Shown here: one piece after another, positions 9,713-58,865 of the stretch | How positions within the stretch are numbered: the first letter of the stretch is position 1 | How the letters are laid out: every line of letters starts with the position of its first letter | Assembly: GCA_963823555.1 (NCBI GenBank) | Contig: CAWGMA010000001.1 | Location: 480,001 to 544,000, forward strand | Source: Candidatus Eiseniibacteriota bacterium | GTDB taxonomy: Bacteria > Eisenbacteria > RBG-16-71-46 > CAVPCR01 | Reading direction: 5' to 3' | DNA length: 64,000 bases | The notes under the pieces: generated by a model | The model's database searches: none | What the model saw: the letters and a program-made list of their open reading frames with translations, nothing else | What the model was told of the DNA's origin: nothing | Position numbers and translations under genes: made by a program

Positions 9713-9742
9713 TTGACAGCCGCGGGGCTTCTCTGCTATATT
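9713..9742 (+). promoter_or_regulatory. Near-consensus sigma70 promoter for the C25 protease array
   Basis: TTGACA(9713-9718)-18 nt-TATATT(9737-9742), extended -10 TG, AT-rich tract immediately upstream (9686-9712). Confidence 0.7.
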
Positions 9743-10023: not shown

Positions 10024-13000
10024 ATGCGAGGTCGAATGATCGGAACGATGCGTTCTCCGGGGCCGCGGGGAGCCATGACGATTGCGTTCCTGAGCGCGGC
10101 CCTGAGTTGGATTCTCGTCGGGCAGGCCGGCGCCGCGCCCTTCGCCGCGGTGGCCGAGGGCGACGGCTACATCGTTCGCTTCTCTCCCTCCGATCTCAAG
10201 CTCGAGCCGTCCGCTGACGGCACGCGCGTGAGCTTTGGCGATATCATCGGGACGGCCGATGCGCCCGGTGGACCGGGACTCCCCATCGTTCCTGTCGTGC
10301 TCGAGATCCCGGTCACGGAGACCGCCACCGGCGTCGAGGTGATCGCCGTCGAGGAGCAGGTCGTGGCCACTCATCTCGACGTGGCTGCCGCCGAGAAGCC
10401 CGCCTGGGGCGAGACGGTCTATCCATCGCCGGCCCGCAACGCGGAGCTCTACGCCGCGGAGCCGCTGCCGGCGTCGTGGGTCCGCGTCGCCGGGGAAGGC
10501 TTCGCCCGCGGCCACCGCCTGGTCACGGTCCACATCGCCCCGGCCCGCTACGCGCCGAAGACCGGCGAACTCCGGTTCGCGGAGGTCGTTCGCTTCCGTC
10601 TCCAGACCGCCCCGGCCACGGATCGCCCGCGGGAGCAGCGGCGGACCGCTTCCGAGATCGAGGATCGCTTCACCGCGACGCTCGATCGCGCCCTCGGCCG
10701 CACTCCCGCTCCGGTGCTGGCGCGCGCTCTGCCCGCGGCGCCGACTCCGCTCCGGATCACCTTCCCGCCGTCGGTCGATGGCTCCCCGGTGCCCTACGTC
10801 ATCATCACCAGCGAGGCGATGGCTCCCGCCTTCCAGACGCTCGCCGACTGGAAGATGAGGAAGGGACTTCCCGGCAGCGACAATGTGGGGCCCGGCGGCG
10901 CGGCGGTGGTGACGACGGAGTGGATCGACGCCAACTATCCGAACGGCGCCGATCGCGCCGAGCAGGTTCGTTTCTTCCTCGAGGATGCCTATTCGGTGTG
11001 GGGAACGCTCTGGGTCCTGATCGGGGCTGACACCGAGATCGTTCCCACACGCTATGTCTACTCCGACCTCTTCGTCTTGCCCGATGAACCGTCCAAGGTT
11101 CTCCCGACCGATCTCTACTATGCCTGTCTCGACGGCAACTGGAACGCGGACAAGGACGACCGCGTGGGCGAGGCCCTGGTCGATGGGGTGGACCTGATGC
11201 CCGAGCTCTTCGTCGGGCGGGCGCCGGTGACGAACCTCGCCGAGGCTCAGGCCTACGTGCAGAAGACGCTCGACTACGAGCGCACGCCCCCGGTGAGCGC
11301 GCGCTATCCGGCCTCCGTTGTGTTCCTGGCCGAGGATCTCGGCGCCACCGACGGCGCCGCGATCGCCGAGGAGGCCTACGCCCAGGTCCATTCCTGGATG
11401 GGGCGCGTGCGCATGTACGAGAACCATGCGAGCTACCCGGGTGCGATCCCGCTCACCAAGGCCGCTGCTCTCGACTCGATCAATGCCGGCTTCGGCTGGG
11501 TGCATCATGTGGGACACGGCTTCCGCAACACGATGTCGGTGGGACCGACCGGGCAGATCAGCAACCAGGATGTCGACGGACTCACGAACGGCGGCCGGCA
11601 GTCGTTCATCTTCGCCATCAACTGCAGCTCGGCCTCGATCGACTTCAATTCGATCGGGGAGCGCTGGCTCAAGAACGCGCTCGGGGGTGGGGCCGGCTAC
11701 GTGGGGACCACCCGGATCGCCTATCCTCAGGTGTCGCGGCGCTACCAGAACGAGTTCTACCGCCTGGCGTTCGCGGATTCGGTCGACACCGCGGGCGAGT
11801 GCCTGTTCATGTCCCGCCTGCCGTGGGTCGCCGGCTCCGAGTCGGACAACCCGGATCGCTGGACCCAGTTCGCCCTCATTCTCCTCGGGGATCCCGATCT
11901 GCCCCTGTGGACGAACCGGCCCCAGCAGCTCGCCGGCCAGCATCTGGCGGCCATGACCCTCGGCACCGGTAGCTTCACGACGACCGTGAACGCGGGCGGG
12001 GCCCCGGTCAACGCAGCCCGGGTCACGTTGTGGGCGGAGGGCGAGGACTACAAGAGCGGGCTCACGGGGACCGGCGGTGATGTCACCTTGCCCTTCGACC
12101 CGGAGACGACGGGCCAGTTCCTGATCACGGCCACCCGCCGCAACTATCTACCCTATCAGGGGACGGCGACCGTGAACGCCTCGGCAACGCCATTCCTCTT
12201 CGTCGACGGCGTCGAGGTCGATGACGACAACGCGGGGGGATCGGTCGGGAACGGGGATGGGCTCACCAATCCCGGGGAGACTGTCTGGCTCCGTGCGGCG
12301 CTTCGCAACACCGGACTCTCGCCGGCCACGGGGATCACCGCCACGCTGGTCTGCGAGAACGGCGCCGAGTACGTTGATATCTTCACCATCACGGTCACCT
12401 ACGCCAACATTCCGGCGGGTGGCGTGGCGAGCGGTCAGGCGCATGTGGTTCGCATCAAGACGTCGGCCCCGATCGGATTCCTGCCGCGCTTCCGCATCGA
12501 CATCGTCGCCAACGAGGGCACGTGGTCGGACGTCTTCGTGCTCCCGGTCTACGCCGTGGCCATGGACCAGTACGCACATCTGTGGACGGACCCGGCGCCG
12601 GGCGGCAATGGGAACGGGGTCGTCGAGCCCGGGGAGAGCGTGAGCTATGCGGTCGAGCTCCGGAACTCGGGTATCGGGCAGGGGGTCGGGGTCGAGGGAT
12701 GGCTGCGTGTCCTGAACAAGCTCACGGGTCTGCCCGACCCGCAGGTCACGGTGAGCGACAACTTCCATGCCTACGGCACCATGAACCCCGGCGAGCGCCG
12801 GAGCGGCGGCTTCGCGTTCAGCCTGAGTCCGACGGCCGTCCCGGCGAACCTGCGCCTCGAGCTCACGGTGGAGGACAACTACGACACGCTCACCGTCGAG
12901 CGCAGCGATCTCCAGATTCCTGGCGCCGTGGATAGCCTGCGTGCAATCGGATCCACGAGCACGATTCGCATCCTGTGGGAGCGGCCGAGCGACCCTGATC

Positions 13001-14856: not shown

Positions 14857-14863
14857 TGCGGCA

Positions 14864-17800
14864 ATGATGCAATCACCAGGCAAGCTAGCGTTCGCGATCC
14901 TCCTGTTCGCGCTGTCTGCGGCACCCGTGCGCGGCCAGACCCTGCAGGTTGGCGTTGATCTGGGTGCCGGGCCGTGGGAGCTTGCCGGTGACGCGGCCGG
15001 GGTGACCCTGACCCCGCATCCGGCCTCCTGGCCCACCGAAAACGGCGGCATAGCGCAGATCATGATTGGAGAAGACGGACTGCCGCTCCTGGTCCTCGAG
15101 GTTCCGGTGAGCCCGGCGGCGCAATCGATCGCGGCGCAGGTGGCGGCATCGACCGCTGCGCCGCCGATCCCGCTCGCCGGCCCGCTCCTGATACCCGCGA
15201 TGGAGGCCTCGGGCGAGGGCTCGCCGCAAGCGCGCCCGGCGCGCCCCGCAGCCCCGGCCCGGGTCCCGGCCGTCCTTGCCGCCAAGCTCTCCCGGGCGCG
15301 GGATCGGGCCACCGCACAGGTCGTGGCGCGGGTCGCCGGGTTCGACGGCACGCATCTGCTTCCGCTGAGCCGGCTCACCATCGAAGTGACCGTCGATCTC
15401 GGTCGCGACCCGCGTGCCGACCATCGCTCCGAGCCGGACCTCGAGGCGCGCTTTGCCCGGGCGCACGGTGACCTTGCCGTGACCAGCGCAGCTCCGCCGC
15501 TGCGTGTGGATCCCGTGTTCGCTCCAGCGCTCGAGCCAACGCTCGATGGCAGCCCGATCGAGGTCGTCATCGTGACCAGCGAAGCGCTGCGCCCGGAGTT
15601 CGAGCGCCTGGCTCACTACCGTACGAGCTTCGGGCACCGGGCCGTGGTGCGCACGGTCGAGTGGATCGAGTCCGAGTACGCCGGGGCGCCGCATTCCGAT
15701 CTGGCAGCGCGGATCCGTGCTTTCATCGCGGATGCCCGTGCTCGCTGGGGCACGATGTGGGTGCTGCTCGGCGGTGATACCGACATCATCCCGGCGCGCT
15801 ACGCCGTGTCGCGCTACTTCGTCAGCGATTACGAGCTGATCCCCGCCGATCTCTACTATGCGGCTCTCGATGGCGACTGGAATGCCGACGGCGATGCCTT
15901 GATCGGTGAGGCTCCGGGAGGCGAGGGCGATCCCGGGGACGATGTCGATCTGGTGCCCGATGTGTTCCTCGGGCGGGCGCCGGTTTCGACGGCGGCGGAA
16001 GCGCGGCAGTTCGTCGAGCGCCAGATCTCCTACGAGGAGGGTGCAGGCGCCGCCGAGGACTACCCGGCCTCCGTGCTCTTCCTGGCGGAGGTCCTGTTCG
16101 AGTCCCTCGATGGGGCGGAGATCGCCGAGGACACTCGGCAGCACCTGCCCCCGGACGTGTCGGCTACTCGCCTCTACGAGAACACCGCGGCCTATCCGGG
16201 ATCCGAGCCGGAGACCCCGGCCTCGGTGCTCGCCGCCCTCGAGCACGGGTACGGGGTTGTCGAGCACGTGGGTCACGGGTTCCGCAACACGCTCTCCGTG
16301 GGCCCCGGTTCCATCAACAACGCCGACATCGATGGCCTGGGCAACCGGCCGCGGCTGCCCGTGTTCGTCGCGCTCAACTGCACATCGGCGGCCATCGATT
16401 TCAACTCGATCGGCGAGCGGTTGGTCAAGAACCCCGCCGGCGGGGCCATCGCCTATGTCGGGTCCTCGCGCTATGCCTTCCCCGGTCATGCTCGTCTCTA
16501 TCAGGAGGCCTTCTTCCGATCTGCCTTCACCGACAGCCTGCGCACGGTCGGTGAGGTGTTGCAGCGCACGCGGAGCTTGCTCGCCCCGCTTGCCGTGATC
16601 GAGGGGGCGCACCGCTGGACCCAGTTCGCGCTCACGGTGGTCGGGGACCCGATGACGCCGCTGTTCACCCGGCGTCCCGAGCCTCTGGTCCTGCATCACG
16701 ATCCATCGATCGCGCCGGGGACCGAGACGATGGCCATCCAGGTCACGGCCGGCGGCGCGCCGATCGCGGATGCCCCGGTCGCCCTCCTGGGGGCCGACGG
16801 CAGCCTGGCCACCGCGGGAACCGACGCGGCAGGTCTCGTCATGCTCCCGGTCCCGGTGGGGGCCCGGGGTCCCTTCATGGTGGCCGCCAGCTTCCCGGAT
16901 CGCTGGCCCTCGCGTTCGGGGCTGGCGGTCGTCGGAAACGGGGGCTCGTACCTCGTGGTGCGCGATCTCACGGTCGATGACCGAGCCGACGGCGACGGCG
17001 ACGGGAGCGCCGAACCGGGCGAGACCGTGGGTCTCGGGATCACGGTCGAGAATGCCGGCGGGGAAGTGTCATCGGCAGGAGAGGCGCGGATCGCGCTCAG
17101 CTCCGGACCCGGCGCCATGATCGATGGGCAGGCGGCGTTGCCATCTCTCGCGCCCGGTGCCTCGGCCGCCATCGGGTCCTTCAGCCTGGCCGTGGATCGT
17201 GGGGCCGCGGACGGGGACATCCTGGCGCTCGAGATCATCATCGAGGCGGGCCCCGAACGGCGATCGGTGCGTCGCGTGCTGGCGGTGGGCGGGCCGCGGC
17301 TCCGCCTGGCCGGGCACGTGATCGATGGCAACGGGGAAGTGGATCCCAACGAGACCGTGCGCTACTCGCTCCTCCTCACCAACGACGGCGGGGGCCCGGC
17401 ACGGGCCGTGACCGCCGCGGCGCGCGTCCTCGATATCGCGACCGGGGAGCCCGCGGCCGGCGTCACGCTTCTCGATGGTCGCTCGCGCTTCGGCGATCTC
17501 CGGCCGGAGGAGACGACCGCCGGAGATCCCTTCGTTTTCGCGCTCGGTTCCGCGGTCGATCCCGATTCCCTTCATCTCGAGGTGCGGGTGACGACGGCGC
17601 TCGGCGCGGAACCAGCTCGTCTCCTCGATTTCGTGCCCCCGGGGCCGCCGACCGCGCTCCGCACCCGTGGCTCGGAGCGCGCCGTGCTCGTGAGCTGGAC
17701 TGCGCCCCCGGACAGCGACCTCGCTGGCTACGAGGTCGAACGGGCGGAGGATGGTGGCGGGCCGTTCGTTCTCGTGACGCCGCGCCCGGTGGCGCAATCC

Positions 17801-19609
17801 TCGTTCACCGATCGCGCGCTCCCCGAACTCGCCACCTTGACCTACCGGGTGGCGGCCGTCGATTCATCCGGCAATCGCAGCGTGGTGTCGGCCACCGTCG
17901 AGGGCACGACCAATCCGGGGCTCCATCCGGGATGGCCGGTGGTCATGGGCAGCGAGACGCCGTCCTCGCCGGTCCTTGCCGATCTCGACGGCGATGGCGC
18001 CGATGAGATCGTGACCGGAGCCGATGCGTTGTATGCCTGGCACGGCGATGCCACGGAGCTCCGCAATGGTGACAATGATGTGCTCACGAGCGGCGTTTTC
18101 ACCACCGACGGCATTGTTGCGGGGTCTCGCGGGTTTCACGCGGTGCCGGCGATCGCCGATCTCGATGGCGATGGCGAGCTCGACCTTATCGGCGTGGCCT
18201 GGGAGGCGGCCCAGGTGTTTGCGTGGAGGACGGACGGCTCGCTGCTTCCGGGTTGGCCGCAGAGTCTGGGCCGGGCGCCCAACTGGGGGTCGGCGGCGGT
18301 CGGTGATCTCGACGGCGACTCGGATCTCGAGGTGACCGTGCTCGGCGGTGGCGATGGTCAGGTCTATGCCTGGCACCACGACGGGAGCGAGGTGGCCGAT
18401 GGTGACGGGAACCCCGAAACGCACGGCGTCTTGCTCTCGACCGGGGACCGGTTCAGCTTCGGCACGCCGGCGCTTGCCGATCTGGACGGCAATCCTGGGC
18501 TCGAGATCGTGATCGGCATCGACATCTACCCGTTCACCGGGGGGGTCGGAGGATTGCATGCCCTGACGGCGACCGGTGCCGAGGTGCCCGGATTCCCGCG
18601 CTTCCTCGGGAGCAAGATCTCCGCTTCGCCCGCCATCGGCGATCTCGACGGCGATGGCACACTCGAGATCGTGATCGCGGTCGAGGATGACTCGCTCCGC
18701 GTGCTGGAAGCCGATGGTTCGCCGAGGCCCGGCTGGCCGCAGTGGGCTTTCATCAGGAACGCCCCGGCGCGCACTTCTTCGCCCGTCTTGGCGGATCTCG
18801 ACGGCGATGGACGACTCGAGATCGTGTTCGCCGAGAACTCGGGAGCAGCCTCCCATGTCGCGCATCTCAGGGTCTTTCGCGACGATGGCTCCGTGTTCCC
18901 GGGATTCGAGAACGTGACTTTTGCCACCGACCCCGAGGCGGTGAATGCGGGCGCCACGCAGTCGACGCCGGTCATCGGGGATGTCGACGGTGATACCCGC
19001 TTCGAGATCCTGCTCGGGGCCGAGGACGGGCGGCTCTATGGCTGGCATGACGACGGCAGTGTGGCCGGGGGGTTCCCGATCCAGACCGAAGGTGAGATCC
19101 GGGGGGCGGCGGCCCTCGGCGATGTCGACGGGGACGGCCTGCTCGAACTGGTGGTCGCCGGCTGGGACAAGAATCTCTATGTCTGGGATCTCGCCGGAGA
19201 GGCGCTCCCGGATCGGGTGCCCTGGCCCTTCTTCCATCGCGATGTGCGAAACAGCGGAAACGTCACGTTACCCATGCCGCGCGCCACGGAAGGAGGGAGT
19301 CGGGATCTGGATCCCGACGCAGCATTCCATCGTGGACCGCAGTTATTCGCTCCAGAGCCGACGCCGGCCAATCCGGCGACCGAGATCCGCTTCTTGCTGC
19401 CGGAAGGCGGTCCGACCCGGGTCGTCCTCTATGGCGTGGACGGCCGCGCCGTCCGCCGCTTGCATGCCGGTCCCCTGGCTCGTGGCGAGCACCGGATGCG
19501 CTGGGACGGCCGTACCGATTCCGGCGCGCCGGCCCCTTCAGGTGTTTACTGGATCCATCTTGCTGCGCCCGGAGGAGAAGCGACGACCCGTATCGTCGTG
19601 ATCCGCTGA
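14864..19609 (+). CDS. C25 cysteine peptidase / FG-GAP / CTD protein, copy 2 (most divergent)
   Basis: EHVGHG, ALNCTS, VVGDP, DLDGDG repeats, PTPANP...WDGR...SGVYW. Confidence 0.9.
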   Translation: MMQSPGKLAFAILLFALSAAPVRGQTLQVGVDLGAGPWELAGDAAGVTLTPHPASWPTENGGIAQIMIGEDGLPLLVLEVPVSPAAQSIAAQVAASTAAPPIPLAGPLLIPAMEASGEGSPQARPARPAAPARVPAVLAAKLSRARDRATAQVVARVAGFDGTHLLPLSRLTIEVTVDLGRDPRADHRSEPDLEARFARAHGDLAVTSAAPPLRVDPVFAPALEPTLDGSPIEVVIVTSEALRPEFERLAHYRTSFGHRAVVRTVEWIESEYAGAPHSDLAARIRAFIADARARWGTMWVLLGGDTDIIPARYAVSRYFVSDYELIPADLYYAALDGDWNADGDALIGEAPGGEGDPGDDVDLVPDVFLGRAPVSTAAEARQFVERQISYEEGAGAAEDYPASVLFLAEVLFESLDGAEIAEDTRQHLPPDVSATRLYENTAAYPGSEPETPASVLAALEHGYGVVEHVGHGFRNTLSVGPGSINNADIDGLGNRPRLPVFVALNCTSAAIDFNSIGERLVKNPAGGAIAYVGSSRYAFPGHARLYQEAFFRSAFTDSLRTVGEVLQRTRSLLAPLAVIEGAHRWTQFALTVVGDPMTPLFTRRPEPLVLHHDPSIAPGTETMAIQVTAGGAPIADAPVALLGADGSLATAGTDAAGLVMLPVPVGARGPFMVAASFPDRWPSRSGLAVVGNGGSYLVVRDLTVDDRADGDGDGSAEPGETVGLGITVENAGGEVSSAGEARIALSSGPGAMIDGQAALPSLAPGASAAIGSFSLAVDRGAADGDILALEIIIEAGPERRSVRRVLAVGGPRLRLAGHVIDGNGEVDPNETVRYSLLLTNDGGGPARAVTAAARVLDIATGEPAAGVTLLDGRSRFGDLRPEETTAGDPFVFALGSAVDPDSLHLEVRVTTALGAEPARLLDFVPPGPPTALRTRGSERAVLVSWTAPPDSDLAGYEVERAEDGGGPFVLVTPRPVAQSSFTDRALPELATLTYRVAAVDSSGNRSVVSATVEGTTNPGLHPGWPVVMGSETPSSPVLADLDGDGADEIVTGADALYAWHGDATELRNGDNDVLTSGVFTTDGIVAGSRGFHAVPAIADLDGDGELDLIGVAWEAAQVFAWRTDGSLLPGWPQSLGRAPNWGSAAVGDLDGDSDLEVTVLGGGDGQVYAWHHDGSEVADGDGNPETHGVLLSTGDRFSFGTPALADLDGNPGLEIVIGIDIYPFTGGVGGLHALTATGAEVPGFPRFLGSKISASPAIGDLDGDGTLEIVIAVEDDSLRVLEADGSPRPGWPQWAFIRNAPARTSSPVLADLDGDGRLEIVFAENSGAASHVAHLRVFRDDGSVFPGFENVTFATDPEAVNAGATQSTPVIGDVDGDTRFEILLGAEDGRLYGWHDDGSVAGGFPIQTEGEIRGAAALGDVDGDGLLELVVAGWDKNLYVWDLAGEALPDRVPWPFFHRDVRNSGNVTLPMPRATEGGSRDLDPDAAFHRGPQLFAPEPTPANPATEIRFLLPEGGPTRVVLYGVDGRAVRRLHAGPLARGEHRMRWDGRTDSGAPAPSGVYWIHLAAPGGEATTRIVVIR

Positions 19610-19662
19610 AGCGGAAGCAAGAGAGCTTGGATGATCGCTACTAGAGAGAGAACACGCGCGAG

Positions 19663-24495: not shown

Positions 24496-24545
24496 GGTCC
24501 AATCATGACGAAGTCCCTGCAACAGCGAAACTCTGGAGTCGACTG

Positions 24546-29345: not shown

Positions 29346-29488
29346 GGCGACGCCGCGATCGGGGTCCAGTCAGTATTTGCAGTCGGTCCTCGGGGCCGAC
29401 CGCGGGCTACGAGAACAGGGCCGGGAGAGACCGGCCGGTCATCGCGCACCGCCTGCCATGAACGGCGATGCGTTGAAGGAGCACAGAC

Positions 29489-32400
29489 ATGAAGGGGCGC
29501 CGTAAGCCGCGCACGGGTTGCAATCGCTCGATTCTCACTCTGCTGCTCTGTCTCTCTGCGCTGGGATCCTCCGCCTCCATGGAGGCGATCGAGGCCGAGG
29601 CGGCGACAAGGGTCGAGGAGGTGCGCTTCGCGGCGAGCGATCTCCGGCTGGAGGAACAGGCGGACGGCACGGTGGTGGTGCGCTACCCGGGAGCGGTAGG
29701 GTCGCCGGCCGGGTCGCCGGATCTGCCGCTCGTGCCGGTGTGGATCGAGGTGCCATCGGGGATGCGGGTGGTGGGGGTCAAGAGCCGGGCCCAGGGGGTG
29801 GCGGAGCTGGGAGTGGTGCGGGTGCGGCCGGTGGCGCCGGACGTGCGCGTGAGCGACGAAGAGAAGGCGGCGGTGGCGGACGCGGAGGTGTACGGGAGCG
29901 CGGGGCCGGTGCCTGGGGAGTGGGCGGTGCTCGCGAGCGAGGGGACGCTCCGCGGTCACCAGCTGGCGGGGGTGCTGGTGTCGCCGGTCAGGTGGTCGCC
30001 GGGGACGGGACGGCTCGAGCGGGCGAGCGTGGTCGAGGTCGAGCTCGTCCTCGAGCCGGGGCGGCCGGCAGGGATGCCGGAGGCGGTCGAGCGGCGGCGG
30101 GTGTCGGCGGCGATCGAGTCGAAGTTCGAGGCGGACGCATCGAAGTGGATCCGCGGGTTCACCCCGGCGGCGGCGACCGAGGGTGGGGGCGATGCGGGGA
30201 GCGGTCCGGCGGGTCCGGGGCCGTACCAGCCGACGTTCCGGCCGACGACGGACGGGAGCGCGGTGGAGTACGTGGTGGTGACGTCGGCGGCGCTGGCGGG
30301 GGAGTTCCAGCGGCTGGCGGACTGGAAGACGCAGAAGGGGGTGCAGGCGGCGGTCAGGACGGTCGAGTGGATCGACCAGATGTACCCGAACGGGGTGGAT
30401 CGGGCGGAGCGGGTCCGGTTCTTCATCCGTGACGCGTACCAGAACTGGGGGACGCGCTACGTGCTCCTCGGTGGCGACACCGATATCGTACCCCCGCGCT
30501 ACGCGCAGATGGTCGTCTACAATGCCGAGCAGATTCCCGCTGACTACTACTACGCGTGCCTCGACGGGAACTGGAACGCCGATGGGGATTCGCGCTTCGG
30601 AGAATCGCTCTTCGGCGGTGGGGATGAGTGCGACTTCTATGCCGAGGTGAACGTCGGGCGGGCGCCGGTGTCGACGCTGGCCGAGGCCGATACCTTCGTC
30701 GACAAGACGCTCCTCTACGAGCAGAACCCGCCGCTCTCCTCCCGTTACCCGGCCTCCTTCCTCGCCCTCGCCGAGCGCCTCTTCACCGATATTCACGGTG
30801 CCGACATCGCCGAGGAGGCGATTGACTTCCTGCCGCCATGGATGCGCGTCGTCCGGCTGTACGAGGAGTCGGCGAGCTATCCGGGGTCGATCGAGCTGAC
30901 GAAGGACGCAGCGATCGACTCGATCGACGCCGGGTTCGGGATCGTGCACCATGTCGGCCACGGCTATCGCAACACCATGTCGCTGGGTAGTGGCACGATG
31001 TCGAACGGGGATGCGGACAACCTGGTGAACGCGCCGCGGAACTCGGTGGTGTTCGCCATCAACTGCAGCTCCGCCTCGATCGACTTCAACTCGATCGGGG
31101 AGCGCTGGGTGAAGAACCCGAACGGCGGCTCGATCGCCTATCTGGGCACCTCCCGTCTCTCCTTCGTGGCGGCTGCCGAGACCTACCAGGGCGAGTGGTA
31201 TGCCCGGGTGTGGCAGGACTCGGTGCGAAGCCTCGGTCCTGTCACTGATTTTGCCCGCCAGTCCCTCATCCCGGGTTCCGACTACGACTCGGCGAACCGC
31301 TGGAACTTGCTGGCGACGACGTTGCTGGGGGATCCGGAGGTGGATCTGTACACGAACGCGGTGGTGCCGCTCGTGGTGACGCATGCCTCGACGACACCGA
31401 TCGGGGGCTCGCCCTTGTCGGTGACGGTGACGGCCGGGGGGTCGCCGGTGGCGGGAGCGACGGTGACGTTGTGGAAGGCGGGGGAGAGCTATGTCAGGGG
31501 GGTGACGGGAGCGAACGGTCAGGCGCAGCTGGCGGTGGGGGCGAACACGCCGGGGGCGATGACGGTGACGGTGCACAAGAGCTACTACCGGCCGTACGTG
31601 GGGACGGTGACGGCGACGAGCGCGAGCGGGCCGTACGTGTACGTGACGGGTCTGGTGGTGGACGACGACAACGTGGGCCAGTCGAGCGGGGACGGGGACG
31701 GGCGGGCGGATGCGGGGGAGACGGTGGAGCTCCGGGTGACGCTCCGGAACGGGGGAGGGGGGCAGGTGACGGGGCTGGTGGGGACGATCTCGGAGAACGA
31801 TCCGGAGAACGCGCTGACGATCGTCCAGGCGACGGTGAGTTACGGGACGATCGCTCCGGGGGGTAGCACGCAGGGCAGTGGGGCCTTCGTGGTGACGATC
31901 GCGGAGAACGCGCCGGTGGCGTACCAGCCGGTGCTGACGGTGGTGGCGGCGGGGACGCAGGGGACGTGGGTGGACCCGGTGGTGCTGCCGCTCCGGCGGC
32001 CGTACCTGGAGCACTGGGGTCACGTGGTGGACGACGCGTCGCCGCGAGGCAACGGGAACGGGGTGGTGGAGGCGGGGGAGGAGATCTACTACCGGGTGAC
32101 GGTGAAGAACACGGGGCAGGACGGATCGGTGGGGCTCGCGGGAGCGCTCCGGGCGCTCCAGGTGTCGGACCGGCAGCCGCACCCGGGGGTGACGGTGGGG
32201 GACGGGGCATCGAGCTTCGGGACGCTCGCGCCGGGTCAGCAGGTGGAGGGAGATCGGTTCGCGTTCACGCTGAGCGGACAGGCGGATCCGACGACGGTGC
32301 TCCTCGAGCTCACGCTCACCGACGCGCTCGGGGTGGCGGCCGTCGAGCTGCTGGACGTGCTGCATCCGGACTCGCCGGACACGGTGAAGGCATTCGGTTC

Positions 32401-34312
32401 GCCGTCCTCGATCCGCTTGACGTGGAACCGGGCGGAGGCGGGGGACGCGAAGGGGTACGACGTCCTGCGGTCGAGCGCGCCGGGAGGACCGTTCCAGCGG
32501 ATCAACGCCTACACGGTGGACGGGACGGCGGCGTACGAGGACCCGGGTCTGCCGGCGCTGACGCGGTACTACTACCAGGTGGTGGCGCGGGACTCGTCCT
32601 ACAACGCATCGGTGCCGTCGGCGGTGATCTCGGGCACCACCAACCCGCCCAACACCCCCGGCTGGCCGATCGAGATCGCCCAGCAGACCCAGTCCTCGGT
32701 CGTCCTCTCCAACACCGCCGGCGGATCCGACTACGAGATCTTCACCGCGGCGGACTTCCAGTACGGCTGGCACGCCAACGGGACCGAGATCCTCGATGGC
32801 GACGACGATCCGCGCACCAATGGTCCCTACTCCCGCTACGGCTACAATTCAATCAAGGGATTCTCTGCCACCACCGCGATCGGGGATCTGGACGACGACG
32901 GCGACTTCGAGATCGTCAATGTCGGCTGGACGGCAGACACGCTCTACGTCTGGGACCACCAGGGTCAGCTCGCTCCGGGCTGGCCCAAGTGGATCATGGA
33001 TGACTTCAACTGGCCGTCCCCCGTCCTCTTCGACCTCGATGGCGACAGCGATCTCGAGATCATCCTCTGGGCGGGGAACGGCGGGCGCCTCTTCGCCTGG
33101 CATCACGATGGGACCGAGGTCGCCGACGGCGACAACAATCCCGCGACGGACGGCATCCTCTACCGCGTGCTCGGCACCTCCTACAACTACTCGAGCCCGG
33201 CGGTGGGGGATATCGACGGCGATCTCCGCCCGGAGATCGTGTTCGCCGTGAACCTGTCCTCGGACATGAGCGGCATGATCTACGCCGTGAACGACAACGG
33301 GACGCTCCTGTGGTCGCGCGCCACGGGGAACGCGAGCGAGCCGTCGCAGATCACGTCGTCACCGGCCATCACTCAACTCGATGGCGCCTTCACCAACGAT
33401 GTCATCTTCGCCGCCGACCGCAACGGGGGCCGCATCTATGCGCTCAATGGCCTCACCGGTGCCGATCTCCCGGGATGGCCGCGCTCGGCTCCGAGCGCCT
33501 CCGGCCAGTCGCGCGTGGGCTCGCCCGCGCTCGGGGATCTCGACAGCGATGGCTACCTCGATATCGCCTACCCGGCCTCGGATGGGCGGCTCTTCGCCTT
33601 CAAGCGCGACGGCACGCCGGTTTCGGGTTTCCCCGTGGTCTATGCCGCCGGCCTCACCGAGGCCACGCAGTCCACACCATCCATCGCCGACATCGACGGC
33701 GACGGCAGACTCGAGATCCTCTTCGGCGACGAGACCGGGAAGCTCCACGGGTACAATCATGACGGCACCCTCGTTGCCGGCTTCCCCATCCAGCTCGGGG
33801 GCGAGGTGCGCTCGACCCCGGTCGTGTGGGACATCGACCAGGACACGATGGTCGAGGTCGCCGTCGCCGGCTGGGACGGCCAGATCCACATCTGGGATCT
33901 GCCCGGCGAGTTCAACCCCCTGCGGACCCCCTGGCCCTTCTTCCGCCACGACGTGCGCAATACCGGATGGACGCAGACGGCGCCCCTGGCCGTCGGCATC
34001 GCCGAGCCGGACGCCGCACCCCAGCCGCCCACAGCACGTGTCTGGCCGGCGCATCCCAATCCCTTCAATCCCGCGACCACGATCGCCTTCGACGTTTCCG
34101 GACAGGGGGCGGTGCCGGTGGCGATCGGCGTGTATGATGTCGCTGGACGGCTCGTGCGCCAGCTCATCGATGCCCCGGTCGAGGCGGGCCATCATGCTCT
34201 CGTCTGGGATGGGCGCGGCCGGAACGGCACGGTGCTCGGATCAGGGATCTACTTCGTCCGGGTCGAGATCGGCAACCACGCGTTCAACCAGAAGGTGACG
34301 CTGATCAAGTGA
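29489..34312 (+). CDS. C25 cysteine peptidase / FG-GAP / CTD protein, copy 5
   Basis: AAGGAG RBS, signal peptide, HHVGHG, AINCSS, FG-GAP repeats, PNPFNP CTD. Confidence 0.9.
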   Translation: MKGRRKPRTGCNRSILTLLLCLSALGSSASMEAIEAEAATRVEEVRFAASDLRLEEQADGTVVVRYPGAVGSPAGSPDLPLVPVWIEVPSGMRVVGVKSRAQGVAELGVVRVRPVAPDVRVSDEEKAAVADAEVYGSAGPVPGEWAVLASEGTLRGHQLAGVLVSPVRWSPGTGRLERASVVEVELVLEPGRPAGMPEAVERRRVSAAIESKFEADASKWIRGFTPAAATEGGGDAGSGPAGPGPYQPTFRPTTDGSAVEYVVVTSAALAGEFQRLADWKTQKGVQAAVRTVEWIDQMYPNGVDRAERVRFFIRDAYQNWGTRYVLLGGDTDIVPPRYAQMVVYNAEQIPADYYYACLDGNWNADGDSRFGESLFGGGDECDFYAEVNVGRAPVSTLAEADTFVDKTLLYEQNPPLSSRYPASFLALAERLFTDIHGADIAEEAIDFLPPWMRVVRLYEESASYPGSIELTKDAAIDSIDAGFGIVHHVGHGYRNTMSLGSGTMSNGDADNLVNAPRNSVVFAINCSSASIDFNSIGERWVKNPNGGSIAYLGTSRLSFVAAAETYQGEWYARVWQDSVRSLGPVTDFARQSLIPGSDYDSANRWNLLATTLLGDPEVDLYTNAVVPLVVTHASTTPIGGSPLSVTVTAGGSPVAGATVTLWKAGESYVRGVTGANGQAQLAVGANTPGAMTVTVHKSYYRPYVGTVTATSASGPYVYVTGLVVDDDNVGQSSGDGDGRADAGETVELRVTLRNGGGGQVTGLVGTISENDPENALTIVQATVSYGTIAPGGSTQGSGAFVVTIAENAPVAYQPVLTVVAAGTQGTWVDPVVLPLRRPYLEHWGHVVDDASPRGNGNGVVEAGEEIYYRVTVKNTGQDGSVGLAGALRALQVSDRQPHPGVTVGDGASSFGTLAPGQQVEGDRFAFTLSGQADPTTVLLELTLTDALGVAAVELLDVLHPDSPDTVKAFGSPSSIRLTWNRAEAGDAKGYDVLRSSAPGGPFQRINAYTVDGTAAYEDPGLPALTRYYYQVVARDSSYNASVPSAVISGTTNPPNTPGWPIEIAQQTQSSVVLSNTAGGSDYEIFTAADFQYGWHANGTEILDGDDDPRTNGPYSRYGYNSIKGFSATTAIGDLDDDGDFEIVNVGWTADTLYVWDHQGQLAPGWPKWIMDDFNWPSPVLFDLDGDSDLEIILWAGNGGRLFAWHHDGTEVADGDNNPATDGILYRVLGTSYNYSSPAVGDIDGDLRPEIVFAVNLSSDMSGMIYAVNDNGTLLWSRATGNASEPSQITSSPAITQLDGAFTNDVIFAADRNGGRIYALNGLTGADLPGWPRSAPSASGQSRVGSPALGDLDSDGYLDIAYPASDGRLFAFKRDGTPVSGFPVVYAAGLTEATQSTPSIADIDGDGRLEILFGDETGKLHGYNHDGTLVAGFPIQLGGEVRSTPVVWDIDQDTMVEVAVAGWDGQIHIWDLPGEFNPLRTPWPFFRHDVRNTGWTQTAPLAVGIAEPDAAPQPPTARVWPAHPNPFNPATTIAFDVSGQGAVPVAIGVYDVAGRLVRQLIDAPVEAGHHALVWDGRGRNGTVLGSGIYFVRVEIGNHAFNQKVTLIK
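29614..30502 (+). repeat. Near-identical block A, copy 3
   Basis: Direct repeat of the block A sequence. Confidence 0.9.
31313..32339 (+). repeat. Near-identical block B, copy 3
   Basis: Direct repeat of the block B sequence (offset 4979 from copy 2). Confidence 0.92.
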
Positions 34313-37300
34313 TGGCTCGTCGAATCCGCACGACGGCGGCCTGCATCGCCGGGTTCATGGCCCTCGCCTCGGTGGCCAGGGCCGGACCGCATTCCACTGA
34401 GACGATCCTCGATTTCCCGGCCGATCGTCTCGTGCTCTCCGTCGAATCCGGTGAGACGCGCATCGACTACCCGGGCGGGTTTCGCGCCGCACCCGAGGGT
34501 GCTCCCGATCTGCCGCGCATCGCCGTGTTGCTGGAGGGCCCGCCGGCGTCGACCGTGATCGCGGTGGAAGTCGATGTGCTCGAGGTCGAGGAGCTGGGAG
34601 TGCACCGGATCGCGAGGGCCGCGGCCGATCGGTCGGCTGACGGTCAGATCGCGGTCGCCCCGCCCGCGGCCCCATCTTCGCTCGCCGACGGCTTCTTCCC
34701 CGCGGCGATCGCCACCTTCGAAGGTTCCGGAGCCATGCGCGGGCGCCATCTCTTCCAGTTCGTCGTGAACCCGGTGCGCTGGAACCCGGAGAGCGGCCAG
34801 CTCGTGCTCCTGACCCGTATCCGCCTGCGCTACGAGCTCGGCCCATCATCCCAGGAAATCCTGCCGCGCCACCGCGTCATGCCCGAGACCGAGGTCAAGT
34901 TCGGGCGCGGGCTGGCGCACGTGCTCGGCGCCGGCGGGCGTGCTGCCGGAGCGGATGCGGGCGGTGCGGACGCGGTCCTCCCCGACGGCGCGACGCCGGC
35001 GGGTCCCGGCCCCTACCAGCCCACCTTCCGCCCGACGACGGACGGCAGCGCGGTCGAGTACGTCGTCATCACCTCGGAGGCCCTGGCCGGCGAGTTCGAG
35101 CCGCTCGTCCAGTGGAAGACGGAGAAGGGCGCTCAGGCCGTGGTGCGCACGGTCGAATGGATCGATGCGACCTACCCCAATGGCGTCGATCGGGCCGAGC
35201 GGGTGCGCTTCTTCATCCGGGACGCCTACCAGAACTGGGGCACGCTCTTTGTCCTCCTGGGCGGCGACACCGATGTGATCCCGGTTCGGTATGCTGAAGC
35301 CAACATCCTGGGCGGCGAATCGATTCCCACCGATTACTACTACATGTGTCTGGAGGGCAACTGGAACGCCGACGGGGACGCCCGTTTCGGGGAGGCCTTC
35401 GAGGGGCCGGAGAACCCGGGGGACAACGTGGATCTGATGCCCGAGGTCTATGCCGGGCGCGCCCCGGTCTCGACCCCGGAGCAGGCAGCGGTCTTCGTCG
35501 CCAAGACCATCGCCTACGATCGCAATCCCGCGACAGGCAACGGCGGCTACCCGGCGTCGATCCTCTATCTCGCCGAGCGTCTCTTCACCAACATCGACGG
35601 CGCCCTGATCGCGGAGGAGGCGAATGCGCTCGTGCCGCCCTGGTTCAAGCGGGTCAAGCTCTACGAGGAGTACGCGAGCTGGCCGCAGGCGTTGCCGGAG
35701 ACCTACTCGGCGGTCATCGATTCGATCAACAACGGCTTCGGCATCGTGTATCACATCGGCCACGGCTACCGCAACACGATGTCGATCGGCGACGGCGTGC
35801 TCATCAACGCCGATGCCGATGCCCTGGTGAACGGCGCTCGTCAGTCCGTTGTCTTCGCCATCAACTGCAGCGCAGCCTCGATCGACTTCAATGCGATCGG
35901 AGAGCGGTTCGTCAAGAATCCGGATGGCGGCTCCATCGCCTACATCGGCACCTCCCGGCAGGCCTTCGTCAGCGCATCGCGCGAGTACCAGGAGGAGTGG
36001 TTCTCGGCGATCTTCGCCAGCCCCGACTCGTTGCGTAGCCTGGGAGAGGTCTGCGCCGTGTCGCGTCTCCCCTTCGTGCCGTTCTCCGGTTACGAGAGCA
36101 GCTTTCGCTGGACGCTGTTCGCTGTCACGTTGCTCGGGGATCCGGAGGTCGACCTCCACACCCATGGCATCGCGCCGATCGCGGTGAATCATGCGCCGAC
36201 GATCGCGCTGGGTGCGGGGTCCTTCGCGCTGGCGGTGACGAGCGCGGGCGCGCCGCTTGCTGGCGCCCAGGTGACCCTGTGGAAAGAGGGCCAGGCCTAC
36301 GCCCGCGGTGTCACCGATGCCGGAGGGGTGGCCGCTCTCGCCTTCGCGCCGGAGACAACGGGTCCCGCCACGCTCACCGTATCGCGGCCGGGATATGCCG
36401 TGTATCAGGCCACCGTGACGGTGACCGCGGCGAGCGGGCCGTATCTCCACGTGCAATCGGTCCTCGTCGATGACGACATCATCCCGCCCTCGAGCGGCGA
36501 CGGCGACGGGCGCGCCGACGCCGGCGAGACGGTGGAGATCGCGGTGACGCTCAAGAACGCGGGTGGCGCGGGCGCCACCGGGGTCAACGCCGTGCTGCGC
36601 GTGGCCGATGCCGGTGGGTTCGTGACCCTCGTCGATTCGACGGTGAGCTACATCGCGATCGGGGCCGGCGGCTCATCGAGCGGAGCAGGGCGCTTCGTCA
36701 TCGCCATCGCGCCCGATGCGCCTTATGCCCTCCAGCCCGTCTTCACGCTCCGCGCCGCCACCGATCAGGGCATCTTCTCGGATGTCTTCGTCCTGCCGGT
36801 ACGGCGCTCCTTTCTCGAGCACGTGACCCACGTGATCGATGACGCCGTTCCGCGCGGGAACGGCAACGGCGTGATCGAAGCCGGAGAGGAGATCTGGTAC
36901 TCGATCTCGCTCAGGAATTCGGGGCAGGATGCAGCCGAGGCGGTGGCGGCCACGCTGGCGGCGGTCAAGGCCCGTACGCTCGACCCCGAACCCCTGGTCA
37001 CGGTGAGCGACGGGAACTCGAGCTTCGGGAGCGTCGCGGTGGGGGCCACGCTGACCGGGGACCGCTTCGCATTCGCCCTCGATCCGGGGCTCGATCCGGA
37101 CTCGCTTCGTCTCGCGGTGTCCTATGACGACGCCGACGGACCGGTTCGCACCGAGTACCTCGATGTCGTACCGCCAGGCGCGGTGGATAGCCTCGTCGTC
37201 TTCGGGGCGCCCAGCTCGCTCCTCATCAAGTGGAAGCGGCCAGCGGATCCCGATGTGCTCGGCTACGAGATCTTCCGCGCTCCGAGTCCGGGCGGGCCCT

Positions 37301-39129
37301 TCGTCCGGGTGAACGATTATCTGGCGGAGGGGGCCGCGGTGTTCGAGGATCCGGATCTCATGCCGCTCACCCGTTACACCTACAAGATCGCGCCGCGAGA
37401 CTCGTCGTTCAATGCGGGACCGCTCTCGACAGCGGTCTCCGGATCCACGAACCCGCCACTCGCGGTGGGATGGCCGATCGAGCTCGGCCAGCAGGCCCAG
37501 TCCTCTCTCCAGCTCGCCGATGTGGCCGGAGGCAGCGATAACGAGGTGTTCACCGCGGCCGACTACCAGTTCGGCTGGCACGCCGACGGCAGCGAGATCG
37601 TCGACGGCGACGGGGATCCACGCACGAGCGGGGTCCTCGCCCCGGATGGTTATTCGTCCTCGAAATCGTTCAGCGCTACCTGTGCGCTCGGTGACATGAA
37701 CGGAGACGGCAACGTGGAGATCGCTAATGTGGGCTGGATGCTGCCCGAGGCCTACCTCTGGAACGCGGACGGCGAGCTGCTATCGGGGTGGCCTGAGCCG
37801 GTGTTCGGTGATTTCAACTGGCCGTCGCCCCTGATGGCCGATATCGACGGCGATGACGATCTCGAACTCGTCGTGTGGGCGGCACAGGGTGGACGTCTCC
37901 TCGCCTGGCACCATGACGGCAGCGAGGTTGCCGACGGCGACAACAATCCCTCGACGCACGGCATCCTCTACCGCGTTACCGGAGCGTCATACTGCTATTC
38001 ATCTCCTGCGGCGGCCAACCTCGATGCGGATCCGGAGGCGGAGATCGTCTTCTGCCTCAACTTTGCGACCGACAATGCCGGCCCGATCTACGCCGTGAAC
38101 GGCGACGGCACCCTCGTCCCCGGCTGGCCGGTCGCGACCGGTGACCCCGCCAACCCTTCCGCCATCACGGCCTCACCAGCGATCGGCGATCTCGATCGCG
38201 ATGGCGTGAACGAGGTCGTGGTCGCCTCGGAGCGGGGTGGTGGGCGCGTGCATGTGTTCAGGGCCAACGGTACGGTGTTCCCGGGATGGCCGAAGAGCAT
38301 TCCCGCCGTGACGGCGCAGGTGCGGACCGGCTCCCCGGTCCTCGCGGATGTCGACGACGACACCTACCTCGATGTCGTCTTCCCCAGCTCGGACGGTCAG
38401 CTCTGGGTCTGGAACCGAAATGGCGCGACGCTTCCGGGATTCCCGGTCCGGTTCTACTCCGGGGCCGGCGAGGCGACGCAATCGTCACCGACGGTGGGGG
38501 ATCTCGATGCCGACGGAAGGATGGAGATTCTCATCGGGGACGAGACCGGAAGGCTCCACGCCTTCAACCACGACGGCGCTCCGGTCGCCGGCTTCCCGAT
38601 CCAGCTCGGCGGGGAGGTTCGAGGCTCGTCGATCATCTGGGACATCGACAATGACGGCCTGGTCGAGGTCGGCCTGGTGTGCTGGGACGCCAACGTCTAC
38701 ATCTGGGATCTACCCTATGCCTGGAACCCGACGCGCATCCCCTGGCCCTTCTTCCGCCATGATGTCGCCAATACGGGCTATGTCGGGAGCGAGATCCTCC
38801 CTGTCGCCATCGCCGAACCCGGGGCGGCCCCGGATAATGGCCCCCGTCTCGCGGTGATTCACCCGGCCCGGCCGAACCCATTCAATCCGCGCACCACGCT
38901 CTCCTTTGATGTGCCCGGATCAGGACAGATCCCGGTGAGCCTGTCGATCTATGATGTGGACGGCCGTCTCGTGGCGCGCATCCTGGACGGCCAGCTCCCG
39001 CCCGGCCGTCACGCGGTGGATTGGGACGGGCGCGGAGAAGGCGGCCGGGGTCTTGCGGCCGGGGTCTATTTCTACCGGGTCACGATCGGGGATTTCACCG
39101 CATCCCGCAAACTGACCCTCGTCAAGTAA
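34312..39129 (+). CDS. C25 cysteine peptidase / FG-GAP / CTD protein, copy 6
   Basis: TGATG overlap with copy 5, signal peptide, YHIGHG, AINCSA, LLGDP, FG-GAP repeats, PNPFNP CTD. Confidence 0.9.
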   Translation: MARRIRTTAACIAGFMALASVARAGPHSTETILDFPADRLVLSVESGETRIDYPGGFRAAPEGAPDLPRIAVLLEGPPASTVIAVEVDVLEVEELGVHRIARAAADRSADGQIAVAPPAAPSSLADGFFPAAIATFEGSGAMRGRHLFQFVVNPVRWNPESGQLVLLTRIRLRYELGPSSQEILPRHRVMPETEVKFGRGLAHVLGAGGRAAGADAGGADAVLPDGATPAGPGPYQPTFRPTTDGSAVEYVVITSEALAGEFEPLVQWKTEKGAQAVVRTVEWIDATYPNGVDRAERVRFFIRDAYQNWGTLFVLLGGDTDVIPVRYAEANILGGESIPTDYYYMCLEGNWNADGDARFGEAFEGPENPGDNVDLMPEVYAGRAPVSTPEQAAVFVAKTIAYDRNPATGNGGYPASILYLAERLFTNIDGALIAEEANALVPPWFKRVKLYEEYASWPQALPETYSAVIDSINNGFGIVYHIGHGYRNTMSIGDGVLINADADALVNGARQSVVFAINCSAASIDFNAIGERFVKNPDGGSIAYIGTSRQAFVSASREYQEEWFSAIFASPDSLRSLGEVCAVSRLPFVPFSGYESSFRWTLFAVTLLGDPEVDLHTHGIAPIAVNHAPTIALGAGSFALAVTSAGAPLAGAQVTLWKEGQAYARGVTDAGGVAALAFAPETTGPATLTVSRPGYAVYQATVTVTAASGPYLHVQSVLVDDDIIPPSSGDGDGRADAGETVEIAVTLKNAGGAGATGVNAVLRVADAGGFVTLVDSTVSYIAIGAGGSSSGAGRFVIAIAPDAPYALQPVFTLRAATDQGIFSDVFVLPVRRSFLEHVTHVIDDAVPRGNGNGVIEAGEEIWYSISLRNSGQDAAEAVAATLAAVKARTLDPEPLVTVSDGNSSFGSVAVGATLTGDRFAFALDPGLDPDSLRLAVSYDDADGPVRTEYLDVVPPGAVDSLVVFGAPSSLLIKWKRPADPDVLGYEIFRAPSPGGPFVRVNDYLAEGAAVFEDPDLMPLTRYTYKIAPRDSSFNAGPLSTAVSGSTNPPLAVGWPIELGQQAQSSLQLADVAGGSDNEVFTAADYQFGWHADGSEIVDGDGDPRTSGVLAPDGYSSSKSFSATCALGDMNGDGNVEIANVGWMLPEAYLWNADGELLSGWPEPVFGDFNWPSPLMADIDGDDDLELVVWAAQGGRLLAWHHDGSEVADGDNNPSTHGILYRVTGASYCYSSPAAANLDADPEAEIVFCLNFATDNAGPIYAVNGDGTLVPGWPVATGDPANPSAITASPAIGDLDRDGVNEVVVASERGGGRVHVFRANGTVFPGWPKSIPAVTAQVRTGSPVLADVDDDTYLDVVFPSSDGQLWVWNRNGATLPGFPVRFYSGAGEATQSSPTVGDLDADGRMEILIGDETGRLHAFNHDGAPVAGFPIQLGGEVRGSSIIWDIDNDGLVEVGLVCWDANVYIWDLPYAWNPTRIPWPFFRHDVANTGYVGSEILPVAIAEPGAAPDNGPRLAVIHPARPNPFNPRTTLSFDVPGSGQIPVSLSIYDVDGRLVARILDGQLPPGRHAVDWDGRGEGGRGLAAGVYFYRVTIGDFTASRKLTLVK

Positions 39130-39133
39130 TCAG

Positions 39134-40261
39134 GTGGCAGGATTCACGGCGCATGGCCCCAGGCAACGACGACGAGCCGGGGGCTTGGTTGCCAATCTCT
39201 TTCTCCTTCTTGCGAGCATCCTCTTCACGCTCGTGGCTCTGGAGATGGCGCTGCGCCTCGTGGAGCGCCGCGAGACCGGACGCCCGCCGGCGGTGGCAGC
39301 GGACGCCGATGCGGATTCGGCCGCCCGGGATGTCACTCCCGAGTATGTGCCGTCCGACCTTCTGGGCTGGACGCTCCGCCCCGCGAGCGTGCAGCGTTTC
39401 CGGCGGCGGGGATTCGACACCACCGTCCGCTCGAATGATCTCGGCTTCCGCGGTCCCGTGGTGGAGCCCAAGGCTGCGGACGTGAAACGCTGGGCCGTGC
39501 TCGGCGATTCGTACGGCTTCGGCTGGGGGGTCGAGGAGAGCGAGACCTATGCCGCGGAGTTCGAACGCCTGCTGAATGCCGGTCCGGATCACGGGGTGCG
39601 CTACGAGGTCGTGAACGCGGCCTTGCCTGGATTCGGCACCTATCAGCGTCTGGCGGCGCTCGAATGTCTCCGGCCCTATGGGCTCGACGGCATCATCGTC
39701 GAATTCAGCGCCTCCAATGATGTGGTCGATGACTGGCGGGCTGCTCCCTACGTTCCCGATCGTCTCGGTGAGTACCAGGCGCGGGGGACGCAGTTCACGG
39801 CATTCGAGCGCTTCTTGAACGCACACAGCCGCTTGTTCACGCTGCTCTGGAATCGTGCCATGCCGCTCCGGTTGTGGCTCGAGGCCCGTTCCGGGAAGAA
39901 CCTCGAGCGAAGCGAGCGGTTGTGGGAGCAGATCCTCGCCCGTGCCGATGCGCTCGATCTCGACGTCCTGGTGGTGGTCAACGCCTCGCGCTACCAGGTG
40001 CTCGGGGATGGAGGCGGTGTGATGAGCTGGCTGGCACACACCGGCTTCGGCCTCAGGCCCAACACGATGATCCGCCGGGTCATCGAGCGCCATCGACTGC
40101 CATGGGTCGATGGAGAGCAGGTGTTTCGGGCGGCCCCGGCCGGCGATCTCTTCCTCGGCGGGGATGTGCACTGGACCAGGAAGGGCCACCGGCTCGTGGC
40201 CGAGGCCCTCGCAGACCGGATCGAGGAGGTCTCGCCGCCGCCGCCGGCCGGCGCGAACTAG
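39134..40261 (+). CDS. Membrane-anchored SGNH/GDSL hydrolase-family protein
   Basis: N-terminal TM helix (NLFLLLASILFTLVALEMALRL), N.LGFRG, LGDSYGFG, VVNAALPG, SND, DVHWT..GH. Confidence 0.8.
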   Translation: MAGFTAHGPRQRRRAGGLVANLFLLLASILFTLVALEMALRLVERRETGRPPAVAADADADSAARDVTPEYVPSDLLGWTLRPASVQRFRRRGFDTTVRSNDLGFRGPVVEPKAADVKRWAVLGDSYGFGWGVEESETYAAEFERLLNAGPDHGVRYEVVNAALPGFGTYQRLAALECLRPYGLDGIIVEFSASNDVVDDWRAAPYVPDRLGEYQARGTQFTAFERFLNAHSRLFTLLWNRAMPLRLWLEARSGKNLERSERLWEQILARADALDLDVLVVVNASRYQVLGDGGGVMSWLAHTGFGLRPNTMIRRVIERHRLPWVDGEQVFRAAPAGDLFLGGDVHWTRKGHRLVAEALADRIEEVSPPPPAGAN

Positions 40262-42880: not shown

Positions 42881-42945
42881 GACAGTTCCTCCGCCGGCAA
42901 GCATATCATTGCTCAGCCCCGCGAGCACCGAGACTGGGGCTTCGA

Positions 42946-42954
42946 TGCTATATT
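42946..42954 (+). promoter_or_regulatory. Extended -10 element just upstream of the fusion gene start (possible leaderless promoter)
   Basis: TGCTATATT ends 8 nt before the ATG at 42963; no SD sequence in between. Confidence 0.4.
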
Positions 42955-42962
42955 CGGCCGCC

Positions 42963-51023: not shown

Positions 51024-51212
51024 CGGAGCACTCCTTGATTTCTGCTCGCTGGGGAATCCGAGTTCAGAACGGTGGGAGACTGTGCTGGGGCGATGATGGT
51101 AACACAGCCCACGCGGGAGAGGCGCGGGAATCGCCCAGGCGATATACTCGATCCAGGTTCCGGAACCGTCCCGGTCCCGCCCCCATCCCCCCCTCGCAAG
51201 GAGAGGCACGCT

Positions 51213-58741: not shown

Positions 58742-58865
58742 TACTGGGTTCCGGTGTCGCAGCGAGCTGGATGGCTGCTGCGGCTTGAGCCACGGTCCTC
58801 CTCCAACCCTGTCCACCACCCGACCCCCCGGTCCTAACTGACATTGTTGAAAGGGATTGAGCGCG

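Follow-up and report, generated by a model that had tools for sequence, protein, structure and literature searches.

The window, a 64,000 nt stretch of a Ca. Eisenbacteria genome, carries six intact ORFs of about 1,600 aa each, all on the forward strand and coding for proteases of family C25 (Table 1). The gaps between them are, in order, 7, 53, about 50 and 143 nt, and copies 5 and 6 overlap at a TGATG stop/start; the tandem layout with short gaps, as given in a preliminary description of this DNA, is borne out by the ORF coordinates. The GHG and NC motifs reported for every copy are likewise kept in 6/6 (as H[VI]GHG and [IL]NC), and the near-consensus promoter said to precede the first gene corresponds to a sigma70-type TTGACA-18-TATATT match, a pattern that occurs once, against a mean of 0.0 in shuffled sequence. 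The start chosen for copy 4 fits the length of a 1599-aa database protein (P0002) from the same contig. Pairwise protein identities are 39–53%, rising to 77–80% among copies 3–5. Three further full-length paralogs lie outside the array (C1:81-86, 339-344 and 1318-1323 kb), and the genome holds 21 C25 matches in all. Other features of the window include a strong G+C hairpin, lacking a T tail, in the gap that separates copy 4 from copy 5 (29346-29488), possibly a processing or stability element; a L,D-transpeptidase/carboxypeptidase-like domain fused to MurC/Mpl (42879-44888); and a PstS-like/TPR/ExbD/TonB cluster flanked by two choice-of-anchor B proteins (51072-52616 and 58857-61310), both of which have T9SS tails.

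Table 1. Features of the C25 protease array (positions in the window unless marked aa).
Feature	Position	Strand	Basis and remarks
Promoter-like site, sigma70-type TTGACA-18-TATATT	9713..9742	+	Consensus match only; ~280 nt 5' of copy 1
Copy 1, C25 protease, 1610 aa, unconverted	10024..14856	+	ORF call, Pfam; counterpart in G001 70% identical
Copy 2, C25 protease, 1581 aa, most divergent, unconverted	14864..19609	+	ORF call, Pfam; counterpart in G001 66% identical
Copy 3, C25 protease, 1610 aa	19663..24495	+	ORF call, Pfam, structure models
Copy 3 domains: propeptide; catalytic; IgSF; two Ig-like; FN3; propeller (likely 8-bladed); C-terminal sorting domain	aa: propeptide ~39-245; catalytic ~259-618; propeller ~1050-1505		Alignment and models
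Copy 3 tract 1 (propeptide, linker, start of catalytic N-subdomain), G-skewed	19776..20662	+	Identity, skew, trees
Copy 3 dyad codons, His490 and Cys525	21130-21132 and 21235-21237 (21130..21237)	+	Aligned to GHG and AC motifs of RgpB
Copy 3 tract 2 (IgSF and Ig stalk), G-skewed	21467..22449	+	Identity, skew, trees; 99% identical to copies 4 and 5
Copy 4, C25 protease, 1599 aa	24546..29345 (ORF 24387-29345; likely start ATG 24546)	+	ORF call, Pfam
Copy 4 tract 1	24631..25620, edges approximate	+	Duplicated-region scan
Copy 4 tract 2, reaching into FN3	26311..27720, edges approximate	+	Duplicated-region scan
Copy 5, C25 protease, 1607 aa	29489..34312	+	ORF call, Pfam
Copy 5 tract 1	29611..30570, edges approximate	+	Duplicated-region scan
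Copy 5 tract 2, reaching into FN3	31291..32670, edges approximate	+	Duplicated-region scan
Copy 6, C25 protease, 1605 aa, propeptide and stalk unconverted	34312..39129 (ORF from 34309/34312)	+	ORF call, Pfam

The C25 fold claimed in the preliminary description was upheld by the Pfam scan and the structural comparison with RgpB that it had proposed. Peptidase_C25 scored 206–229 bits in all six copies (cut-off, 23), FG-GAP_3 was far above and FlgD_ig above cut-off in all six, and Propeptide_C25 fell slightly under cut-off in five of the six. An AlphaFold2 model of residues 39-722 of copy 3 (59 sequences; pLDDT 90.9) gave RgpB (1cvr, E 2e-27) as the top Foldseek match, followed by Kgp and the RgpB/Kgp prodomains. 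The propeptide was also matched in profile searches (5mun, E 3e-14; 4ief_A, E 2e-6) and its model resembles the 4ief prodomains, so that profile and predicted fold point to an N-terminal propeptide of the inhibitory type, inhibition being assigned by likeness. A signal peptide was recognized by eye in copy 3. The model of residues 717-1610 (52 sequences; pLDDT 90.8) comprises two Ig-like domains, FN3, a propeller and the tail, and the closest structure to the propeller is the 8-bladed Cake8 (TMt 0.86). The FN3 and FG-GAP propeller that had been placed in the adhesin position therefore stand, with the refinement that an IgSF root of the gingipain type and two more Ig-like domains lie between the catalytic domain and FN3. 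All clusters retrieved from the ESM Atlas have this same architecture.

His490 and Cys525, which align with the catalytic pair of RgpB as first proposed, are kept in 111/111 aligned family members, Glu428 in 110/111 and Glu441 in 104/111; these two glutamates are candidate S1 residues. An arginine at position 555, after the last core strand, is kept in 96/111 and aligns with an arginine of PorU. Taken with the Pfam scores, the dyad and the predicted caspase-like fold followed by an IgSF domain place the copies in peptidase family C25 (clan CD). RgpB and Kgp of Porphyromonas gingivalis (MEROPS C25, clan CD; PDB 1cvr, 4ief, 4rbm, 5mun) have the propeptide, caspase-like His-Cys domain, IgSF root and T9SS-type C-terminal domain in common with them. 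However, RgpA and Kgp carry cleaved-adhesin/haemagglutinin domains, for which no Pfam match was found here and whose place is taken by a further two Ig domains, an FN3 domain and a propeller; the array genes are further set apart from gingipains by their tandem arrangement and free-living lineage. In RgpB, Asp163 acts as the anchor and Trp284 as the lid (according to the available text of PMC4357240 and PMC9559808), and neither is conserved in the array family: by sequence alignment only, the Asp163-equivalent position is A, E, D, D, D and L in copies 1–6 and acidic in 58/111 members, and the Trp284 position is mostly P or V. Since the anchor position varies and the lid is absent, the copies are classed as C25 proteases but not as Arg/Lys gingipains. 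Their P1 preference is not readable from the sequence; covariation with the S1 position was tried for this purpose, and the inhibitory loop of the propeptide aligns poorly. The T9SS sortase PorU (NF033707, PDB 6za2) also shares the C25 fold, the dyad and the aligned arginine. PorU identity was rejected, the copies scoring at most 114 bits on a model with a cut-off of 420.

The preliminary description regarded the proteins as secreted, and this is supported by an export tail on all six copies and by SprA, PorV and a separate PorU in the genome. The C-terminal Ig-like sorting domain (PF13860) is over cut-off in 6/6 copies and TIGR04183 in 3/6. At least 150 proteins of the genome have the same FlgD_ig tail (150/150 scored were over cut-off, from 257 candidates). 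SprA is over cut-off at C1:1.89 Mb, the PorV family has at least five loci, and PorU is over cut-off at C1:701907 with 475 bits; this true porU is followed by a porV-family gene at C1:701034-706546. By their tails, and with translocon, shuttle and sortase genes present in the genome, the copies are likely to be T9SS type A cargo. The GldM profile had no match in the genome (92.5% complete), where its control was also blank, and GldK gave only a score below cut-off, which suggests a T9SS with an unrecognised motor.

A survey of 151 phylum genomes with the catalytic domain as query (E 1e-60) found the family in 85, counted as matches rather than copy numbers. Of the 84 other positive genomes, 60 have one match, and outside this order the maximum is four; within the order the genomes have 9, 10, 2 (a fragmented genome), 9 and 11. 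The family is thus widespread in the phylum, mostly single-match, and expanded to 9–11 matches in this order. In a congeneric genome (G001), etfA and an SGNH-family gene enclose six genes that correspond 1:1 to the array in unchanged order, and a further genome (G003) has four copies at the same locus, which answers the synteny check suggested at the outset. Two of the G001 genes, copies 3 and 4, carry one frameshift each in that assembly (G001:C1:271541-281240). An SGNH/GDSL-family gene (39134-40261) begins 4 nt after copy 6 and is kept downstream of the array in both genomes. Neighborhoods were compared at 18 loci of other genomes, hand-picked for long contigs, mostly from one family and so non-independent: a UvrD+PD-(D/E)XK helicase-nuclease adjoins the family gene in 11/18, a gltX-like gene, named from a motif, in 11/18 and a CapD-type gene in 10/18, and an SBP_bac_5 gene lies directly upstream in 6/18. 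A protein search scored 7,999 candidates, of which 395 are relatives; the 120 of these that were listed all have the C25/FG-GAP make-up, with names that are generic at most. No paper on this array was found in the non-subscription literature on Eisenbacteria, gingipains, the T9SS and C25 metagenomes, nor any that pairs Eisenbacteria with gingipain, in agreement with the preliminary description, which knew of no such array. What that description had overlooked was the spread across the phylum, the three extra full-length paralogs, and a domain-restricted conversion with G skew.

Copies 3–5 are 95.9–98.0% identical in DNA sequence over propeptide and linker and 98.5–99.1% over the stalk; their catalytic cores are 75–79% identical, with short identical patches, and their propellers 65–72%. 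The end of tract 1, near residue 333, lies just ahead of the first copy-specific loop, and the start of tract 2, near residue 601, just past the last one. The distant paralog at C1:81-86 kb has tract 1 in common with copies 3–5 (95–96%) but is only 73% identical in tract 2, and the G001 orthologs are only 70–79% identical in the same tracts.

Such near-identity could in principle be produced by long-read assembly or polishing, or the copies might have duplicated very recently instead of being old paralogs subject to conversion. The assembly consists of four contigs, is likely long-read, and has neighboring assemblies that carry frameshifts. Nevertheless, the tracts differ at 1–5% of sites, all in frame, their synonymous G bias is beyond what an assembler can create, the propellers pair with orthologs of another species, and independent short-read contigs agree with the tracts, so we regard this explanation as very improbable. 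The contigs, from runs X1 and X2, cover parts of both tracts with 0–2 differences (one with 10); one joins the unique start of copy 3 to tract 1 with two differences, and a contig from a related strain crosses the copy 2/3 junction. They are fragmentary (32 listed of 517, none of those listed spanning the array), their depth cannot count copies and their joints are unreliable. That G001 has these six genes too, in unchanged order, confirms together with the short-read contigs that the array is real and not an assembly artefact.

Trees were built from ten sequences, with positional orthology taken from synteny. In the stalk tree the copies cluster by genome (100/100) and ortholog pairing is rejected (p-AU 5e-38 or lower), and in the propeller tree a 3+4+5 clade is rejected (AU p 9e-100), the groups tested having already been seen in the identity comparison. 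Propellers of copies 5, 6 and the distant copy pair with their orthologs (100/100), and pairing by position has weak support for copies 3 and 4 (76/95 and 55/48). Because stalks group by genome whereas propellers group by position, the homogenization appears to be restricted to domains, and because the propellers pair with orthologs in another species, the copies are judged to be old and not recent duplicates. From these patterns we infer that the propeptides and stalks of copies 3–5 have been homogenized by gene conversion. In G001 the stalks of copies 4 and 5 were homogenized separately (95%), and two database proteins (P0010 and P0012), compared irrespective of genome origin, show the same conflict between stalk (89%) and propeller (54%). 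No conversion was seen among the five copies compared in G003, where the best stalk identity is 42–54%.

Orthologous catalytic cores are under purifying selection (pN 0.12–0.22 and pS 0.43–0.52), as are the propellers (pN 0.12–0.21), and paralog-diagnostic positions show no clear concentration in core or propeller (core, 9/270; propeller, 16/455; stalk, 8/311). Catalytic loops and propellers kept distinct under purifying selection, on a homogenized scaffold, lend indirect support to the earlier suggestion of diversified targets. A plausible history would have tandem duplications before the split from the congener, and since then recurrent conversion that made the scaffold identical in copies 3–5, reached the propeptide of the distant copy and shuffled portions of the catalytic core in patches. 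Gingipain genes have been described as undergoing domain rearrangement and allelic exchange (in the accessible part of PMC5266723). For RgpA and RgpB the shared portion is 97% in the catalytic domain and 76% in the propeptide (PMC10319874, as far as its text was available), the reverse of the pattern in the array.

The converted tracts are strongly G-skewed. Their G/(G+C) at fourfold sites is 0.81–0.92, compared with 0.32–0.52 in cores and propellers of the same genes and a genome-wide mean of 0.43 (sd 0.07); a value of 0.75 is exceeded in only 1 of 6,914 single-copy windows but in 23 of 111 multi-copy ones. The remaining top scorers are tufA and tufB (0.85 and 0.90; G000:C3:538366-539557 and 555231-556421), and in four other Eisenbacteria genomes the tuf share is 0.70–0.97, a fifth genome searched having no tuf match. 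The G001 tracts show weaker homogenization with weaker skew (0.56–0.70). Expression-driven codon bias was rejected as the cause, since fusA, pieces of rpoB/C and ribosomal protein genes lying between and beside the tuf copies have values of 0.25–0.61 against 0.85–0.90 for tuf. The genome has 69 duplications of 500 bp or more; in 34 of them the mean |GC skew| is above 0.15, and eight of the 34 also pass for TA. Of the 34, 32 carry G on the strand taken as leading from the overall skew of the contig, many of these regions being copies of the same mobile elements and therefore non-independent. The distant paralog's tract, missed by the scan, is a counter-example (giving 32/35), as might be expected had it been copied out of the array. 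The G-rich strand of G001 is likewise probably its leading strand. Coding-strand skew was rejected as a general rule, since in several duplicated genes C prevails on the coding strand and G on the inferred leading one. The skewed regions include HNH/DUF222-like repeats and transposases, named by eye from sequence. At C3:475185-480604 are tandem BNR/sortilin-like propeller proteins with T9SS tails whose N-terminal ~870 bp are 98% identical and C-rich on the coding strand, likely a second converted pair.

A similar phenomenon is known from GRINS, recoded converted repeats in PKS genes with correlated GC and TA skews, both signs occurring on one strand (Nivina et al. 2021, PMC8256042, whose text was available in part). 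The array resembles what is described there in its domain-sized repeats of about 1 kb, over 80% identical within a genome and much less so between orthologs, in third-position recoding and in intense GC skew. GRINS are defined by duplications of >500 bp at >80% identity, with mean |GC skew| and |TA skew| both >0.15; the tracts here are 0.9–1.4 kb at 95–99%, with a |GC skew| of 0.30–0.33 but a |TA skew| of 0.091–0.146 in 7/7 tracts. The stalk of copy 5 in G001 barely passes both (0.177/0.153). Compared with the GRINS described in the available text, the skew is GC-only, with G mostly on the inferred leading strand rather than in both signs, the converted part is the scaffold and not the specificity domain, and the hosts are a protease family and tuf instead of PKS. 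One supplement of that paper has no entry for tuf, peptidase, MutS or NucS, and the non-subscription literature on GRINS and on conversion with skew yielded no GRINS-like tracts in proteases or tuf. The array combines known kinds, C25 T9SS cargo and GRINS-like concerted evolution.

We infer a link between G skew and conversion. The genome has MutS, its gene being split into two frames in the assembly (C1:1421967-1424611; a frameshift or sequencing error), and no NucS match was found in the genome. As a hypothesis, the skew could arise from C:C heteroduplex mismatches escaping MutS, as G:G mismatches would not, during replication-polarised conversion. More speculatively, and on balance doubtful, the two identical, G-skewed tracts on either side of the variable core may act as recombination arms by which cores and propellers are swapped like cassettes, the GC-only skew of the leading strand being the footprint of strand-polarised conversion under MutS. 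If true, the array would be a self-diversifying protease battery, GRINS-type recoding would be explained generally, and combined GC and TA skews would be predicted in NucS organisms.

As to function, we consider it somewhat favored (probability roughly 0.55) that the array specifies a T9SS-exported battery of C25 proteases, borne on an Ig stalk and FG-GAP propeller, that cuts extracellular proteins into peptides, with the scaffold of copies 3–5 homogenized by conversion and loops and propellers kept distinct. The N-terminal signal would direct Sec export, and the propeptide, going by its predicted fold, would hold the enzyme latent as in RgpB. SprA and PorV would then recognize the C-terminal sorting domain, which PorU possibly removes. 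With the propeptide off, the His/Cys dyad would cleave with a P1 preference specific to each copy. The propeller probably binds substrate or surface. Extracellular protein breakdown is favored because of the secretion signal, the 19 S8 and 21 C25 peptidase matches in the genome, the oligopeptide ABC genes near the array (44889-48010), the SBP_bac_5 gene found at 6/18 loci of other genomes and the reading of the many secreted C25 paralogs of Thermoprofundales and similar sediment microbes as protein-degradation tools (PMC6461988). Those peptidases belong to another lineage, and the available text of that paper describes no such array or architecture.

Against breakdown, the family is conserved across the phylum and mostly single-match, and its usual neighbors are gltX, a helicase-nuclease gene and genes for polysaccharides, not for peptide uptake; envelope housekeeping fits both observations at least as well. 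For this reason the main rival is envelope processing or transpeptidation, in which the proteases mature, release or re-anchor the cell's own T9SS cargo and the paralogs serve different cargo sets. The position often just upstream of gltX and CapD/Wza genes (10–11/18 loci), the abundance of sorting-domain cargo and the PorU-like Arg555 would suit such a role, but the PorU model gives the copies only 66–114 bits, the genome has a true PorU of its own next to porV, the propeptide is of gingipain type and the tail of cargo type, and Foldseek puts RgpB and Kgp far above PorU. We consider it a possible but less probable role. Less probable again is a use as weapons in predation or competition, directed at the surfaces of other cells with propellers as target recognition. 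The expansion specific to this order, the very large secretome and propellers that are distinct and lie outside conversion would be expected of weapons; however, immunity-like or lytic partner genes were not found beside the array, and selection on propeller orthologs is of the ordinary purifying kind rather than the rapid change of an arms race.

The architecture represents an uncharacterised, phylum-wide type of C25 protease that is expanded in an uncultured lineage and is a candidate for specificities other than Arg/Lys. The array would be a natural case of bacterial gene conversion shaping a gene family. It also offers a natural test case for a question left open in the available text of the GRINS paper, namely how converted repeats gain intense skews, since the skew here is GC-only, tracks the degree of homogenization, extends to tufA/tufB in five genomes of Eisenbacteria, and is for the most part aligned with the replication strand.
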